64,000 nt of DNA from an uncultured bacterium (lineage in GTDB: Bacteria > Patescibacteriota > Minisyncoccia > Phycocordibacterales > Phycocordibacteraceae). The notes under the pieces were generated by a model. It ran no database searches, had not been told where the DNA came from, and worked only from the letters and a program-made list of their open reading frames with translations. The translations under genes were made by a program, and so were the position numbers. Positions 4,223 to 38,859 of the stretch are shown here, in pieces (position 1 is the first letter of the stretch; every line of letters begins with the position of its first letter). The stretch covers positions 150,885 to 214,884 of the forward strand of contig CAMTYL010000004.1 in assembly GCA_947085985.1 (NCBI GenBank), in the 5' to 3' direction.

Positions 4223-4364
4223 TGGTATGAGTATGTCTAAAAATCCCATCTACGTCGTTGCGGGTCCCCACTCATCGCTCCGCCGTATGCTTGATACGTC
4301 TCCGCTCTTCGTGTCCCCACGCCTAGTATCTGGGGCTTTTTTGACGCACTCTATACTTTAAACT

Positions 4365-6179
4365 ATGGCACTTCTTGATTTCCTCGGTAGAAACAACAAA
4401 GACGAAACCCCCAGTATCACACCGGTGTTGCCGCGTGATATTTACGCGGAGGGAGCACTAGACTTAGCTGACGCAATTGCGCCCGCTGCACTTAAAGTAA
4501 GCGCTAGAGAGATTGAACTCGGTGAGAAGTTTTCTCGCACGTTCTACACCATATCCTACCCACGCTTTTTAGCTGATGGATGGTTCACGCCCGTCATCAA
4601 CCTAGACCGGGTGTTTGATGTTGGTATTTTTATTCACCCCATAGACACAGGGTCTGCGCTTCGTGGATTCCAGCGCAAGGTGGCTGAAGTAGAGAGTCAG
4701 ATTGAGGACCGTGCAGAGAAGGGGCTGGTACGCGACCCGCTTCTTGATACCGCGTACCAAGACCTAGAAACACTTCGGGACCAGCTACAGCAGGCTCAGG
4801 AGCACCTCTTTGAGGTAGGCTTGTACATCACCATCTACGGCGACACTAAGGAAGAGTTGGACAAAATTGAAGGGGAGTTGCGCAGCATCCTTGATTCAAA
4901 ACTTATATACACAAAACCAGCGCTCTTCCAGCAGGAGCAGGGGTTCCGCTCAACTCTTCCTCTTGCACTTGACCAGCTAGAGGTACACAGCAAACTGAAC
5001 TCATCGCCGCTTTCCTCCATTTTTCCGTTTGTTTCTTTTGACCTCACAAGCGACACGGGTATTCTCTACGGCATCAACCGACATAACTCATCGCTCATTC
5101 TTTTTGACCGGTTCTCCATGGAGAACTACAACTCGGTGGTGTTCGCTAAGTCTGGTTCTGGTAAGTCGTATGCAGTGAAGCTAGAGGTTCTGCGCTCCCT
5201 TATGTTTGGGACAGATGTCATTGTTATTGACCCAGAGCGTGAGTATGAAGACCTTGCGAGCGCCACTGGTGGCCGCACGTTCAATATCTCGCTTTCCTCC
5301 GAACACCACATCAATCCTTTTGACTTGCCTCCCGTAAAAGAGGACGAGGAGCCCGCCGACATTCTTCGCTCAAACATCATTAACTTGGTAGGGCTGTTCC
5401 GCATTATGCTCGGGGGACTTACCCCAGAAGAGGACGCGATTGTGGACAGAGCTATTACCGAGACCTATGCGCTGAAGGACATTACCGGTGACAACGACTT
5501 TACGGGCGTGGAGCCGCCCCTGCTCTCTGATTTTGAACAGATTCTTTCTGGCATGGAGGGGTCACAATCTCTCGTGACACGCCTTTCTAAATACACACAT
5601 GGCACGTGGTCTGGCTTTTTGAACCAGCCAACCAACGTGGACATCAACAAGCAGTTTATTGTCTTCTCGGTGCGCGATATGGAGGACGAGCTGAAGCCGG
5701 TGGCAATGTACATCATCACGCACTTTATTTGGAACGCGGTGCGTCATGAGCTGAAGAAGCGCCTTCTCGTGATTGACGAGGCGTGGTGGATGATGAAGTC
5801 GGACGACACTGCCTCCTTCCTCTACAGCCTGGCAAAGCGTGGCCGCAAATATTACCTAGGGCTTGCAACCATCACTCAAGACGTTGAAGACTTCTTGAAG
5901 AGCCCCTATGGAAGACCAATTCTTTCAAACTCATCTATTCAGCTACTCTTGAAGCAATCACCAACCACTATCAATGTTCTGCAGGAAACATTCAACCTAA
6001 CGGACGAGGAGAAGTTCTTGCTCCTTGAATCGGGAGTAGGGGAGGGGCTCTTTTTTGCGGGACTTAAACACGTTGCCATTAAAATTGTGGCTTCGTACAC
6101 GGAGGACCAAATAATTACTTCTGACCCTTCTCAGATGCTCGCCATTAAACAGGAAAAGAGTCGGCTTGAGGCTGCATAG
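4365..6179 (+). CDS. virB4: VirB4/TraC/TrsE-type conjugal transfer ATPase, C-terminal ATPase portion
   Basis: Walker A VVFAKSGSGKSYAVKLEV and Walker B LLVIDEAWWMM. 604 aa. Different frame from the N-terminal ORF, with its own TATACT box 6 nt before the ATG. Confidence 0.85.
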   Translation: MALLDFLGRNNKDETPSITPVLPRDIYAEGALDLADAIAPAALKVSAREIELGEKFSRTFYTISYPRFLADGWFTPVINLDRVFDVGIFIHPIDTGSALRGFQRKVAEVESQIEDRAEKGLVRDPLLDTAYQDLETLRDQLQQAQEHLFEVGLYITIYGDTKEELDKIEGELRSILDSKLIYTKPALFQQEQGFRSTLPLALDQLEVHSKLNSSPLSSIFPFVSFDLTSDTGILYGINRHNSSLILFDRFSMENYNSVVFAKSGSGKSYAVKLEVLRSLMFGTDVIVIDPEREYEDLASATGGRTFNISLSSEHHINPFDLPPVKEDEEPADILRSNIINLVGLFRIMLGGLTPEEDAIVDRAITETYALKDITGDNDFTGVEPPLLSDFEQILSGMEGSQSLVTRLSKYTHGTWSGFLNQPTNVDINKQFIVFSVRDMEDELKPVAMYIITHFIWNAVRHELKKRLLVIDEAWWMMKSDDTASFLYSLAKRGRKYYLGLATITQDVEDFLKSPYGRPILSNSSIQLLLKQSPTTINVLQETFNLTDEEKFLLLESGVGEGLFFAGLKHVAIKIVASYTEDQIITSDPSQMLAIKQEKSRLEAA

Positions 6180-26478: not shown

Positions 26479-26675
26479 GTGCGCCTACCTGGGACGTGAT
26501 TACACTTCTCGCTCCTTACAGGAGCAGTACACCTTGTGGAGATTTTGCTTCATGACTTCGCAAAATCTGCTCACAAGGTCTTCGAGCCCAGGACGCAGGC
26601 TTCCCAAGCCTGCTTAGGCGCACAAATTAAAGAACCGCCAGTGGGGCGGTTCTTTAATTTGTGCGCCTACCTGGG
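26479..26675 (-). repeat. tRNA-3'-associated structured element, Lys copy
   Basis: 15-nt direct repeat GTGCGCCTACCTGGG at 26479-26493 and 26661-26675. 23-bp hairpin GGCGCACAAATTAAAGAACCGCC-agtg-GGGCGGTTCTTTAATTTGTGCGCC overlaps the tRNA 3' end. GCAGGCTT-ccc-AAGCCTGC hairpin. Terminal GTG-TAAT-CAC hairpin. Confidence 0.6.
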
Positions 26676-29949: not shown

Positions 29950-30139
29950 CTCGGTAGGAACCGGCGAGTACGCCTTTCGGTCACACATAAATCTCTGCTA
30001 AGATTTTGCGCGACCCCCACTCGCCGTCGACACGGCTCCGTGCTTCGATTCCTACACGTGAGCCTCCCAGGCTCACTCGAGAGCACCAAATGAAAACAGC
30101 CCTAACTGGGCTGTTTTCATTTGGTGCTCTCGGTAGGAA
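29950..30139 (-). repeat. tRNA-3'-associated structured element, Arg-GCG copy (element D)
   Basis: 11-nt direct repeat CTCGGTAGGAA at 29950 and 30129. 24-bp hairpin GAGAGCACCAAATGAAAACAGCCC-taact-GGGCTGTTTTCATTTGGTGCTCTC (30079-30131). GAGCCT-ccc-AGGCTC hairpin. Core shares GAATCGAA, GCGAGTGGGGGTCGCG and CGAAAG-GCG-TACT-CGC with the other copies. Confidence 0.6.
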
Positions 30140-34784: not shown

Positions 34785-34856
34785 GCCCCCATAGCTCAAT
34801 GGATAGAGCAGGAGACTTCTAAGCTCTTGATGTAGGTTCGATTCCTGCTGGGGGCA
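34785..34856 (+). tRNA. tRNA-Arg (anticodon TCT)
   Basis: Acceptor GCCCCCA/TGGGGGC, D-arm GCTCAATGGATAGAGC, anticodon loop CTTCTAA, T-arm GTAGG-TTCGATT-CCTGC. Confidence 0.85.
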
Positions 34857-35043
34857 CAAAAATGAAAAACTAAGACGGCGTCTTAGTTTTTCTATTTTTT
34901 GTAGGCACCAGCAGGAATCGAAAGCCGGAGCGATACGCGAGCAGCAGCGAGCGTCGCGAGGTGGGGTCGCGTGCATTTGCGAGTGACGACGAGCAAATAA
35001 CAGGTGACCGAAAGTGGTACTCCACGGTTCCTGCTCCAGGCAC
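34857..35043 (+). repeat. tRNA-3'-associated structured element, Arg-TCT copy (element A)
   Basis: AAAATGAAAAACTAAGACG hairpin overlaps the tRNA 3' end. Core has GAATCGAAAGCCGGAGCGAT, GCGAGGTGGGGTCGCG, GCGAGTGACGACGAG and CGAAAG-TGG-TACT-CCA-CGG. Ends with a degenerate copy of the tRNA 3' end (TTCCTGCTCCAGGCAC). Confidence 0.6.
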
Positions 35044-35052
35044 ATAAACACG

Positions 35053-35080
35053 AAAAGGACCGGCAACGGCCGGTCCTTTT
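35053..35080. terminator. bidirectional terminator after tRNA-Val
   Basis: AAAAGGACCGGC-aac-GCCGGTCCTTTT. Confidence 0.65.
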
Positions 35081-35089
35081 CTGTGCGGG

Positions 35090-37571: not shown

Positions 37572-37656
37572 GCCCAGGTGGTGAAATTGGTATACACGCA
37601 TCCTTGAGGTGGATGTGGCTTCGGCTGTGGAGGTTCAAGTCCTCTCCTGGGCACCA
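37572..37656 (+). tRNA. tRNA-Leu (anticodon GAG), CCA encoded
   Basis: Anticodon loop TTGAGGT, long variable arm TGGCTTCGGCTGT, T-arm GGAGG-TTCAAGT-CCTCT, acceptor GCCCAGG/CCTGGGC. Confidence 0.85.
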
Positions 37657-37852
37657 AATGAAAAAACGCCTTCGGGCGTTTTTTCATTTGGTGCCCAGGA
37701 AGCAGGGTGTCTGCACACCCTGCAGGAGGACTTGAAAGCCGGAGCGATGCTTTGCTCAGCAGAGCAAAGCCGCGAGGCGGGGCTGCGACCGAGCCGAGTG
37801 ACGACGAGGCGAGAGTTGTAGCCAAAAGCGTAATCGCGTGTCCTCTCCTGGG
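37653..37852 (+). repeat. tRNA-3'-associated structured element, Leu copy (element B)
   Basis: 25-bp hairpin CCTGGGCACCAAATGAAAAAACGCC-ttcg-GGCGTTTTTTCATTTGGTGCCCAGG. GCAGGGTG-tctgca-CACCCTGC hairpin. Core carries GGAGGACTTGAAAGCCGGAGCGAT, GCGAGGCGGGG, GAGTGACGACGAG and AAAGCG-TAAT-CGC. Direct repeat GTCCTCTCCTGGGC at 37639 and 37839, exactly 200 bp apart. Confidence 0.65.
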
Positions 37853-37898
37853 CCGCATTTCATCATTTTCCGAAAAACGTGCTATAACGCATCTACAT

Positions 37899-37972
37899 GG
37901 CGGCTATAGTTTAGTGGTAAAACTCAGGTTTGTGGAGCCTGTATCGAGAGTTCGATTCTCTCTAGCCGCCCA
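37899..37972 (+). tRNA. tRNA-His (anticodon GTG) with G-1
   Basis: G-1 followed by GCGGCTA acceptor and discriminator C. Anticodon loop TTGTGGA. T-arm GAGAG-TTCGATT-CTCTC. Confidence 0.85.
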
Positions 37973-38175
37973 GATATGAAAACCGCCTTTGGCGGCTTTT
38001 TCATATCTGGGCGGCTAAGCAGGTAATCTGCATTACCTGCGAGAGAGAATCGAACGCCGGAGCATGTTTCTCTCAGTAGAGAGAAACAGCGAGGCGGTGC
38101 CCAGAGCAAGCCGAGTGACGACGAGGCGCAGACTCGCGGGCGAAAGTGGTAATCCACGTTTCTCTCTAGCCGCCC
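37973..38175 (+). repeat. tRNA-3'-associated structured element, His copy (element C)
   Basis: Hairpin TAGCCGCCCAGATATGAAAACCGCC-tttg-GCGGCTTTTTCATATCTGGGCGGCTA. GCAGGTAAT-ctgc-ATTACCTGC hairpin. Core carries GAGAGAGAATCGAACGCCGGAGC, GCGAGGCGGTG, GAGTGACGACGAG and CGAAAG-TGG-TAAT-CCA-CG. 17-nt direct repeat TTCTCTCTAGCCGCCCA at 37956 and 38159. Confidence 0.65.
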
Positions 38176-38286
38176 AAATCAGCCAACCCAGAAGTGAATA
38201 CTTCCGGGTTGTTGCTGTTTGCAGAAGCTAGCTTGTCTTTTGGTCTGGTTGCACATACCATTCCCTTCGGAAAAGGGGGTATCAAC

Positions 38287-38859
38287 ATGTACAAAGTTTT
38301 TGCAGGGTTCAAGGTTCCCGAAATCTTGAACCCGTTTGCGGAAAATATCGACCGACTCGTGGTGGTACACGGCGGACCTGTCGTGCGGCGTAAACACCCA
38401 CTACACGTCACCGTCATGGCGCCACGAACCGTACGAGATCAGCAGCGCCATGAGCTCGAAGCGTTTGCACAGGAGTTCAATACTGACTACGGAAATGTGC
38501 CGTGTCGTATTGCGTCCCTTCAGCGCTACGAGCACCGCAGCAAGAAGTTCTTTGTTGCAAGTCTCACGGGGCAGCAATTGAGCGACACCATTGATCACTT
38601 TCACCACGAGCTGCATAGGAGATTTTCCTTCACACGGCGTCAACATGAGGGAACAAAGCCTCACATAACGCTGGTCAGCTCCAAGCACACGCGAAGGCAA
38701 GAGGTGTTTGACCGCGTGGTCAGTGCCGCTCACAGTATTGAGTACCCGCGAGAGCCTCTCCGTCTCCCGCACATCGTTCTTCATGTCCACAAGGAGGGAA
38801 CAGAATTACCGCACGTTTCGCCGCCACCAGGTGAACCGCACGCTGGGTGGCAGCCATAG
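38287..38859 (+). CDS. 2H phosphoesterase superfamily protein (LigT / 2'-5' RNA ligase-like)
   Basis: Two H-x-T/S-x motifs (HVTVM; HITLVS) at the expected spacing. AAGGGGG RBS before ATG 38287. Confidence 0.6.
   Translation: MYKVFAGFKVPEILNPFAENIDRLVVVHGGPVVRRKHPLHVTVMAPRTVRDQQRHELEAFAQEFNTDYGNVPCRIASLQRYEHRSKKFFVASLTGQQLSDTIDHFHHELHRRFSFTRRQHEGTKPHITLVSSKHTRRQEVFDRVVSAAHSIEYPREPLRLPHIVLHVHKEGTELPHVSPPPGEPHAGWQP

Follow-up and report, generated by a model that had tools for sequence, protein, structure and literature searches.

Candidate insertion elements behind the tRNA genes of Patescibacteria: small non-coding modules with a structured core and an inverted copy of the host tRNA 3' end

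The DNA described here is a 64,000-nt stretch (the window) of contig CAMTYL010000004.1 (GenBank assembly GCA_947085985.1, positions 150,885 to 214,884) from an uncultured bacterium of the Patescibacteriota. Its subject is a small non-coding module, bounded by two direct copies of a tRNA 3' end, which is present at five of the seven tRNA genes of the window (tRNA-Leu, tRNA-His, tRNA-Lys, tRNA-Arg-GCG, and tRNA-Arg-TCT); the tRNA-Ser and tRNA-Val genes have neither module nor repeat. The genes of the window are chromosomal (PolA, a Mur ligase, RuvA, PilM, UppS, a pseudouridine synthase, and L19), which, together with the lack of similarity to phage DNA except in the tRNAs, rules out a phage origin of the window.

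The copies of each repeat start at T-loop nt 59-60 or in the T-stem 3' strand, and end at the discriminator or just past it (Table 1). An initial annotation of this DNA had listed four such pairs and had described them as running from the T-stem 3' strand to the acceptor end. All four are present in the sequence with this same extent; the coordinates given for tRNA-Lys and tRNA-Arg-GCG hold, and those given for the second copies of tRNA-Leu (37839) and tRNA-His (38159) are each off by one. The annotation overlooked a fifth, partly decayed pair at tRNA-Arg-TCT, as well as the inverted copy of the tRNA segment, the terminator, and the core that lie inside each repeat pair. The similarity of the tRNA-His pair reaches 32 nt at 81%. 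By our own arithmetic, a given 14-mer would recur on the same strand within 300 nt with a probability of about 1e-6, and chance is excluded because five tRNAs have the repeat at the same relative position and because 46 tRNAs of unrelated Patescibacteria loci have the same arrangement.

The order of the module is as follows: the tRNA 3' end is succeeded by its trailer with a terminator-like hairpin, then by an inverted copy of the acceptor strand, usually a hairpin (h), an inverted copy of the T-stem and T-loop, the core, and the tail, a term used here for the tRNA 3' end as repeated directly at the downstream edge of the module. The inverted (Watson-Crick) copy spans the trailer, the discriminator/CCA, and the acceptor 3' strand, and prolongs the terminator stem unbroken, the stem and its flanking arms together forming perfect inverted repeats of 25-26 nt in the window elements. 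Its second segment consists of the T-stem 3' strand and the entire T-loop. The arms, of 8-24 nt, are specific to the tRNA. Hairpin h (8-9 bp) interrupts the inverted copy precisely between its acceptor and T-stem parts and is usual, not universal; the Arg(TCT) element is without it, and has a degenerate inverted acceptor. The terminator function of the hairpins, which are accompanied by a T-run, is a prediction: that of tRNA-His was flagged by a terminator scan, and those of tRNA-Leu, tRNA-Lys, and tRNA-Arg were read directly. The whole element measures about 130-210 nt and contains no open reading frame (ORF), in agreement with the initial view that the insert is too small to encode an integrase.

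The cores of the window elements are 83-105 nt long and are of two types. Type A, shared by the Leu, His, Arg-TCT, and Arg-GCG elements, has three hairpins, P1 with a GGA/GA internal loop, P2, and, behind a GAAA linker, P3 with a UAAU or UACU loop; P2 of the Leu, His, and Arg-TCT cores contains tandem G-A. The Leu core may serve as an example, with its GGA/GA internal loop in P1, tandem G-A in P2 (GAGUGACGACGAG), a GAAA/AAAA linker, and a small P3 with a UAAU loop. Type B, found in the Lys element, has a long hairpin, then GUACUG and a hairpin of 5 bp whose loop is UGUAA, and a P3 as in type A; type-B elements have only about 60 nt of unique sequence.

Table 1. Positions of the tRNA-associated modules, their parts, and other features of the window (coordinates on the 64,000-nt stretch)
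Feature	Coordinates	Strand	Remarks
tRNA-Leu(GAG), host gene	37572..37656	+	ARAGORN; Rfam tRNA, 52.3 bits
Leu direct repeat, copy 1	37639..37652	+	14 nt, exact (GTCCTCTCCTGGGC); T-loop nt 59-60, T-stem 3' and acceptor 3' strands of the working tRNA
Leu trailer and terminator-like hairpin	37656..37689	+	A-tract, GC stem, T-tract
Leu perfect inverted repeat	37645..37670 / 37675..37700		26 nt; terminator stem running unbroken into the tRNA 3' end and its inverted copy
Leu inverted acceptor 3' strand copy and ACC	37690..37699	+	Watson-Crick
Leu hairpin h	37702..37723	+	about 9 bp; at the acceptor/T-stem junction
Leu inverted T-stem 3' strand and whole T-loop	37724..37736	+	ACTTGAA, reverse complement of TTCAAGT
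Leu type-A core	37737..37839	+	covariance model R1, 98.9 bits
Leu tail (copy 2)	37840..37853	+	GTCCTCTCCTGGGC; contiguous with ancestral flank and tRNA-His promoter
tRNA-His element	37956..38176	+	core 100.8 bits
His direct repeat	37956..37972 / 38160..38176	+	exact (TTCTCTCTAGCCGCCCA)
His terminator	37973..38007	+	
His inverted acceptor	38008..38017	+	
His hairpin h	38019..38040	+	
His inverted T-stem and T-loop	38041..38054	+	
His type-A core	38055..38158	+	
tRNA-Lys element	26479..26675	-	
Lys direct repeat	26661..26675 / 26479..26493	-	15 nt
Lys terminator	26624..26660	-	
Lys inverted acceptor	26615..26623	-	
Lys hairpin h	26595..26613	-	
Lys inverted T-stem and T-loop	26581..26592	-	
Lys type-B core	26494..26580	-	
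tRNA-Arg(GCG) element	29950..30139	-	core 77.4 bits
Arg(GCG) direct repeat	30129..30139 / 29950..29960	-	11 nt exact, alternatively 14 nt at 93%; tail truncated in acceptor part
Arg(GCG) terminator	30088..30122	-	
Arg(GCG) inverted acceptor	30078..30087	-	
Arg(GCG) hairpin h	30058..30076	-	
Arg(GCG) inverted T part	30044..30055	-	
Arg(GCG) short type-A core	29961..30043	-	
tRNA-Arg(TCT) element	34839..35048	+	
Arg(TCT) direct repeat	34839..34862 / 35025..35048	+	24 nt at 79%
Arg(TCT) type-A core	34923..35027	+	99.6 bits
Bidirectional terminator of tRNA-Arg(TCT) and tRNA-Val(TAC)	35056..35083		convergent genes (window 34858-35088)
L19 gene	36984..37493	+	
LigT-like 2H phosphoesterase gene	38287..38859	+	2'-5' RNA ligase family (weak Pfam match)
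Isolated covariance-model match	4254..4321	-	9.3 bits, E 0.19

Covariation was assessed in an alignment (A2) of 76 cores with 22 proposed pairs, using slid pairing partners as controls. The proposed pairs are paired in 95.4% of cells as compared with 29-42% in the controls, double changes occur in 18 of the 22 pairs, and the covariation score is 0.664 vs. at most 0.124 in the controls. A mutual-information scan of the core alignment returned nested helices alone, and no pseudoknot or tertiary pairs. G-U or U-G combinations (43) outnumber A-C or C-A combinations (13) in the core pairs. Because of this G-U excess and of the tandem G-A motifs, the core appears to act from the tRNA-sense strand, and an RNA of the minus strand is disfavored on the same grounds. 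The structure predicted for the element by itself (z -6.7 to -8.6) comprises a stem resembling the acceptor, hairpin h, and a T-like stem enclosing the core.

The inverted copy follows the individual tRNA beside it. In 49 of 51 pairs of element and neighboring tRNA (selected by their cores), the complement of the 7-nt T-loop is exact, the variable positions 59-60 included. Where a tRNA has a G-U pair in its acceptor stem, the inverted acceptor still has the Watson-Crick partner of the 3'-strand base, as in tRNA-Ala, whose G3-U70 corresponds to A-U in the element (L004 and L026 among the loci introduced below). The inverted copy is thus templated on, or selected against, the tRNA 3' strand; its derivation from the tRNA 5' strands is refuted by the G-U positions in seven of seven acceptor cases. 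The loss of the G3-U70 identity pair also rules out, for Ala, an aminoacylatable tRNA mimic. A primer-binding site complementary to the mature CCA end was rejected as well, since the inverted copy tracks the genomic trailer where CCA is not encoded (tRNA-Lys). The tail is identical to the tRNA over 12 nt in 29 of 51 copies and degraded in the others. Selection on pairing between tail and antisense copy was considered and set aside, as the changes in the tail look neutral, albeit in a biased selection of cases.

The module is not confined to the window. A strict pattern for the type-A core, which has zero matches in shuffled versions of the window, was searched in GTDB contigs with one genome per species, and loci from other genomes and contigs were fetched (about 160 loci, about 0.9 Mb; numbered here with the prefix L). 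Seventy-eight loci matched, with labels of Saccharibacteria (37), Paceibacterota, Parcubacteria, Nomurabacteria, Kaiserbacteria, or Minisyncoccia (26), "Patescibacteria group" (6), unlabelled bacteria (8), and an archaeon (1). The archaeal locus and one unlabelled locus failed the covariance model and are regarded as chance matches, leaving 76 genuine loci. Three patterns searched in viral contigs gave 0, 0, and 1 match, the single match lying inside a coding region and being attributable to chance. Among the sequences searched, the family is found only in Patescibacteria, also known as the candidate phyla radiation (CPR). Forty-nine of the loci have a tRNA on the same strand that ends 60-80 nt upstream of the core, most of them with a direct repeat 130-215 nt downstream. 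The module is always oriented with the tRNA strand and lies right behind the terminator. Its hosts are tRNAs of 15 amino-acid specificities and transfer-messenger RNA (tmRNA), the latter in two Paceibacterota metagenome-assembled genomes with differing core subtypes (L006, 3942-4332, minus strand; L027, 91-471, plus strand); apparent further tmRNA 3' ends in L005 and L042 are cut by the contig edge. A detector blind to the core, which uses the inverted T part and the direct repeat, finds the module at 5 of 7 tRNAs in the window, 46 of 120 in the pattern-derived loci, and 24 of 146 in the loci of relatives. Copies outside the pattern include GNA/GA variants and several further core types.

No clustering of the cores by genome or by tRNA is seen. 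If two likely orthologous pairs are set aside, the best core matches are about 80-84% identical and often come from other genomes and other tRNAs; in genomes with more than one sampled copy, the window included, the nearest core of the same genome is at most 80% identical. Against Rfam 15, the window yields tRNA matches alone at the gathering threshold, and hairpin-only noise at E<=10. Literature searches returned no description of these elements, the nearest subjects being anticodon-loop group I introns and the Islander concept, and the elements apparently constitute an undescribed family. Two of the loci, L022 and L048, have a conserved, structured-looking stretch (…GACCGAGACG…GGAGTAGAAGGGATC…) about 200 nt upstream of the core, at the position where a tRNA is expected; the 3' end adjacent to it mismatches the arms of the element, and it gives no Rfam match (no group I intron) and no tRNA in ARAGORN.

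Insertion polymorphism was followed in relatives represented by 80 metagenomic loci with L19 orthologues (59-96% identity), a fragmentary sample of short-read contigs that break in the elements. The gene order rplS, tRNA-Leu(GAG), tRNA-His is kept in these relatives and the presence of the module varies. To judge by its relatives, the window would derive from a Saccharibacteria-like Patescibacterium. Behind tRNA-Leu, the module is found in the window and in L081 (L19 94% identical), and is absent from L082, L084-L086, L092, L104, and L147; in L084, tRNA-His begins 68 nt past tRNA-Leu. Other core types occupy the same position in L089/L101/L109, in L132/L088, and in L139/L145/L158; at least four core types occur at the orthologous tRNA-Leu(GAG). 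L081 has no module behind tRNA-His, in contrast to the window, L098, L101, and L107, which have one. The Arg-TCT module is missing from L100 (L19 96% identical) and L082, where the shared terminator and tRNA-Val come immediately after the tRNA. In element-free relatives, the gap between tRNA-Arg(TCT) and tRNA-Val(TAC) is 43-46 nt; some relatives have, instead, a tRNA-Leu(CAG) between the two.

These filled and empty sites also indicate which of the two copies is the original one. The tail of the window Arg-TCT element and its flank (GGCACATAA) are identical to the tRNA end and flank of L082, and the flank of the Leu tail is likewise ancestral by comparison with the empty site in L084. In L139 (filled) and L099 (empty), the right flanks are 96% identical and L139 has 131 nt of extra DNA, bounded by a 24-nt repeat from G53 to CCA, with the flank adjoining the tail and not the first copy. 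Because the flank follows the tail, the tail is the original 3' end of the gene, moved downstream, and the first copy is part of the inserted DNA, as in attL/attR; in the Leu element, copy 1 would have arrived with the insert. An attL/attR-like insertion at the tRNA T-loop is what the initial annotation had proposed, along with a search for empty sites in related genomes; the Leu (L084, L104, L147), Arg-TCT (L100, L082), and L139/L099 comparisons supply such sites. It had also held that an identical arrangement in all relatives would speak for an RNA-processing or trailer role, and the module is instead polymorphic between relatives. An integrase-bearing version of the element, which it had suggested looking for, is not present among the fetched loci.

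Decay, tandem arrays, and rare cargo complete the picture. The Leu copy of L081 has lost P3 and half of its tail, and the Arg-TCT copy of L101 is reduced to the terminator, P1, and P2. Tandem arrays occur in L012, L068, and L145, the last of which duplicates 78 nt with the whole hairpin. L007 (a 130-aa ORF) and L016 have cargo inserted after the first copy and ahead of the terminator. In L016 (2939-5000), two cassettes lie behind tRNA-Ser, each with a module at its end, and their ORFs measure 267 aa, containing an ART-PolyVal ADP-ribosyltransferase domain, and 162 aa, without a Pfam or PADLOC match. A single locus among the roughly 160, L033 (1540-6240, minus strand), has an integron-like layout: a tyrosine integrase (PF00589, 9e-31) is succeeded by a tRNA-like 3' half (TTCGATTCCTACTGGGGGCA at 5036-5055), for which ARAGORN makes no call, and then, downstream, by three units, each of a methyltransferase-like paralogue and an element module, with conserved repeats of about 95 and about 100 nt flanking each ORF. 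A tblastn search with the L033 integrase found no homologue in the approximately 0.9 Mb of other fetched loci or in the window, and the cargo ORFs, this integrase aside, have no recombinase domains.

On balance, and by a modest preponderance only, we favor the interpretation that the repeat pairs are the edges of small non-coding elements inserted in tRNA and tmRNA genes where the T-loop meets the T-stem. The elements are best read as miniature, integrase-less, and tRNA/tmRNA-targeting, with a structured RNA core. They would be mobile now or would have been so formerly, with repeated gains at tRNA 3' ends, because neighboring lineages carry different core types at the same tRNA. The single-copy tRNA would stay functional after insertion, since the element supplies a matching 3' end and a terminator, and transcripts ending at the hairpin are predicted to give an ordinary pre-tRNA. 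In read-through RNA, the minimum-energy fold is predicted to lie 16-27 kcal/mol below that of a tRNA followed by a closed element (four of four intact copies). The predicted fold has the first copy and its T-loop captured by the inverted copy in a hairpin of about 40 bp, and the tail paired with nt 1-7 of the tRNA 5' acceptor strand (nt 4-7 in Arg-GCG), so that the refolded RNA would resemble a pre-tRNA with an insert of about 190 nt in its T-loop. The single-stranded trailer could act as a toehold for this strand exchange. The conserved core probably works in cis, from the tRNA-sense strand and most probably as RNA, either in the handling or processing of read-through RNA or in recognition by a trans-acting mobilization factor, for which the inverted copy may be a target-matching guide.

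How the arms come to match the host tRNA may be approached by two guesses. One is homologous recombination between relatives after DNA uptake, with the tRNA and its flank as homology arms; the 78-nt duplication of L145 is consistent with this idea. The other starts from the template-switch correction of quasi-palindromes, a known mutational process, by which the inverted arm could track the selected tRNA arm in one step. Such a switch would halt at the shared T-loop and would erase hairpin h, as in the variants without h.

Several observations weigh against this reading. No transposase, integrase, or reverse transcriptase is associated with them in the fetched loci or the window. Near-identical copies at different sites were not found either, the cores being at most about 84% alike, the two likely orthologous pairs aside, with no sign of recent transposition. 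How an element would acquire arms that fit each of more than 15 tRNA species is a difficulty, and deletion between the direct repeats could by itself yield the polymorphism. As the seeds of the alignment were chosen by pattern, the invariance of CGGAGC, GCGAG, and GTAMTC in the core is overstated. In addition, at least six compensatory double substitutions (in the terminator, the trailer, h, P1, and P2) separate the Leu copy of the window from its orthologue in L081, which suggests that the structure is selected in situ and that a function at the level of the host fits better than inert selfish DNA.

The host-level alternative is that the module is a cis-acting RNA of the tRNA 3' trailer, beneficial to the host and not mobile, be it a punctuation or processing signal for RNase P/RNase Z, or a trap that holds read-through transcripts in a long duplex for degradation or regulated maturation. 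Gains and losses would then reflect dispensability. We consider this unlikely, though deserving of serious attention, since besides the compensatory changes between close relatives it can draw on the strong covariation of the core, the tRNA-like geometry with h at the acceptor/T-stem junction, the very stable predicted folds, the constant tRNA strand directly behind the terminator, and the two alternative global folds that are predicted. It has difficulty with the facts that only some tRNAs are occupied, that the same tRNA is empty in close relatives, that decayed copies are frequent, and that several unrelated core types are found behind one orthologous tRNA; nor does it account for tandem arrays and cargo ORFs. 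Moreover, the tail decays despite being required for the tRNA-like closed fold, the acceptor mimic drops an identity pair (Ala G3-U70 to A-U), and a generic processing signal has no need of its neighbor's sequence. An intron-like intervening sequence of the T-loop, self-splicing, host-spliced, or excised by RNase III, is a more doubtful proposition still. Here, exon 1 would end with the T-loop and exon 2 would start with the tail, the inverted copy would be an internal guide that pairs with both, the first copy would be the 5' end of the intron competing for that guide, comparable to the P1 extension/P10 of group I introns, and mobility would be reverse splicing into the universally conserved T-loop, a target that would account for the range over all tRNAs and tmRNA. 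The predicted full-length minimum-energy fold, with exon 1, insert, and exon 2, and with pairing between the tail and the 5' strand of the tRNA, the order of the guide (3' part to exon 1, 5' part to exon 2) as in group I logic, the conserved G after P3 immediately before the tail, and the abundance of tRNA group I introns in Patescibacteria (PMC13011429) all agree with it. However, at E<=10 there is still no match to group I, group II, or a ribozyme family of any kind, the putative 5' splice site lacks a G-U wobble (the junction pairs are all Watson-Crick), no pseudoknot signal is seen, and the unique sequence of type-B elements is short (about 60 nt). A terminator lies inside the supposed intron, the tRNA is complete without splicing, exon 2 is decayed in about 40% of copies, and reverse splicing by itself leaves the first copy unexplained.

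The initial annotation had also considered scars of excised integrative elements. Islands or prophages with an integrase, integrated in tRNA genes and deleted to about 200 bp, would leave the regenerated gene and displaced fragment that are the hallmark of islands (PMC4383910), and the L033 integrase does adjoin a tRNA-like 3' half and cassettes. We nevertheless hold such scars to be very improbable: random remnants would not have a covarying core and an inverted copy in common over 76 loci and at least 15 tRNA species, no homologue of the integrase exists elsewhere in the set, and the spacing of the repeats is tightly distributed (130-215 nt). The intervening DNA is instead a conserved, covarying module found across Patescibacteria. 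The annotation's other term, MITE-like (for miniature inverted-repeat transposable element), applies only loosely: generic terminal inverted repeats, target duplications of fixed length, and near-identical copies are lacking. The integrase-less elements favored above might, in a version that we regard as a minority possibility, represent a new RNA-based class, namely a guide-carrying, T-loop-targeting intervening sequence that enters any tRNA or tmRNA gene with a spare 3' end and terminator. The core would then be a new ribozyme or a handle for an RNA-guided enzyme, and the class would be a bacterial counterpart, in ultra-small symbionts, of the archaeal T-loop introns and split tRNAs.

Among known systems, the islands and prophages of tRNA and tmRNA genes and their non-autonomous derivatives, the cis-mobilizable elements (CIMEs), are alike in that the gene is regenerated by the insert's copy of the 3' end and the original fragment is displaced as a direct repeat. 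They also share the tmRNA target, tandem accretion, and a displaced fragment that adjoins the ancestral flank. In contrast, the present elements are 10-100 times smaller (130-210 nt vs. kilobases), have no integrase in or near them, contain an inverted target copy and a conserved structured core, and as a family occupy more than 15 tRNA species, with five sites in the 64-kb window; their repeat often starts past the T-loop and not inside it. Islander defines islands as integrated in tRNA or tmRNA genes by tyrosine integrases, with the T-loop as one sublocation (PMC4383910). Group I introns occur in bacterial tRNA genes, among them those in the anticodon loops of Patescibacteria tRNAs (PMC13011429). 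They resemble the elements as small structured RNAs that occur sporadically in tRNA genes of the same phylum, with an internal antisense segment that can pair with both exon ends and an insert start that resembles the start of the 3' exon. They differ in location (anticodon loop vs. T-loop) and in having covariance models, which the elements do not match, and U-G splice sites, which the elements lack; the elements have a far smaller unique core, and hold a terminator and a replacement 3' end that make splicing unneeded.

The intervening sequences (IVSs) of rRNA are removed by RNase III, and two-piece tmRNA is permuted. Both are, like the elements, sporadic and strain-variable non-coding hairpin inserts in stable-RNA genes, tolerated through processing or folding; IVSs are, unlike the elements, without a duplicated host gene end and a conserved multi-hairpin core. 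Guide-carrying elements include IS110 with its bridge RNA, IS200/IS605 with omega RNA, and group II introns with exon-binding sites (EBS). A structured non-coding part beside a segment that is complementary or identical to the target is common to these and to the present elements, which however have no linked recombinase, TnpB, or reverse-transcriptase gene and no similarity to them in sequence or model, and in which a simple long hairpin of one strand holds the guide together with the two copies of the target. Repetitive extragenic palindromic (REP) sequences and REPINs, Correia elements, other MITEs, and integron attC sites are likewise short, non-coding, hairpin-forming, intergenic, and often terminator-overlapping, and the cassette arrays of L016 and L033 recall attC. 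The present elements differ from all of these by their host-tRNA-specific arms, by the lack of a generic terminal inverted repeat, target-site duplication, or high-copy near-identical family, and in that no RAYT or IntI partner was seen with them.

tRNA and tmRNA genes are classic landing sites of mobile DNA, and the insertions known to us at tRNA genes all rely on kilobase-size, integrase-bearing elements. Here, the same regenerate-and-displace logic is found in a non-coding module of about 200 nt with a covarying fold and a built-in antisense version of the target, in a phylum whose members have minimal genomes and tRNA genes in single copy. Should the elements be mobile, their route of mobilization would be a new one, guided by RNA or single-stranded DNA structure or dependent on transformation and homologous recombination, and they would partly explain the fragmentation of CPR assemblies at tRNA loci. 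Should they be functional, they would be conserved RNAs of a new class with a link to tRNA 3'-end formation, in organisms with little-known RNA processing. In either case, the type-A and type-B cores are a concrete RNA and a marker of recent genome change in Patescibacteria, and the displaced fragments and tRNA-like folds can mislead finders of tRNAs and islands in annotation.

A few further features were noted in passing. The covariance-model match on the minus strand near the start of the window lies away from any tRNA and is probably noise. Two matches to LOOT RNA (RF03000), in L033 (6959-7075, plus strand, 74 bits) and L022 (4219-4346, minus strand, 68 bits), belong to an orphan motif that is unrelated to the element, though present in the same genomes. 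L19 of the window has an acidic, Thr/Glu-rich C-terminal extension of about 60 residues. The LigT-like gene stands directly 3' of the His element; this adjacency is probably coincidental, as the gene is syntenic also in element-free relatives (L084). Contig L001 stops about 650 nt past rplS, and L162-L164 all start 171 nt upstream of the LigT-like gene. Independent short-read contigs with window genes start or end inside elements (at about 38116 of the window, in the His core), and the shared core segments seem to behave as repeats at which assemblies of CPR metagenomes break.

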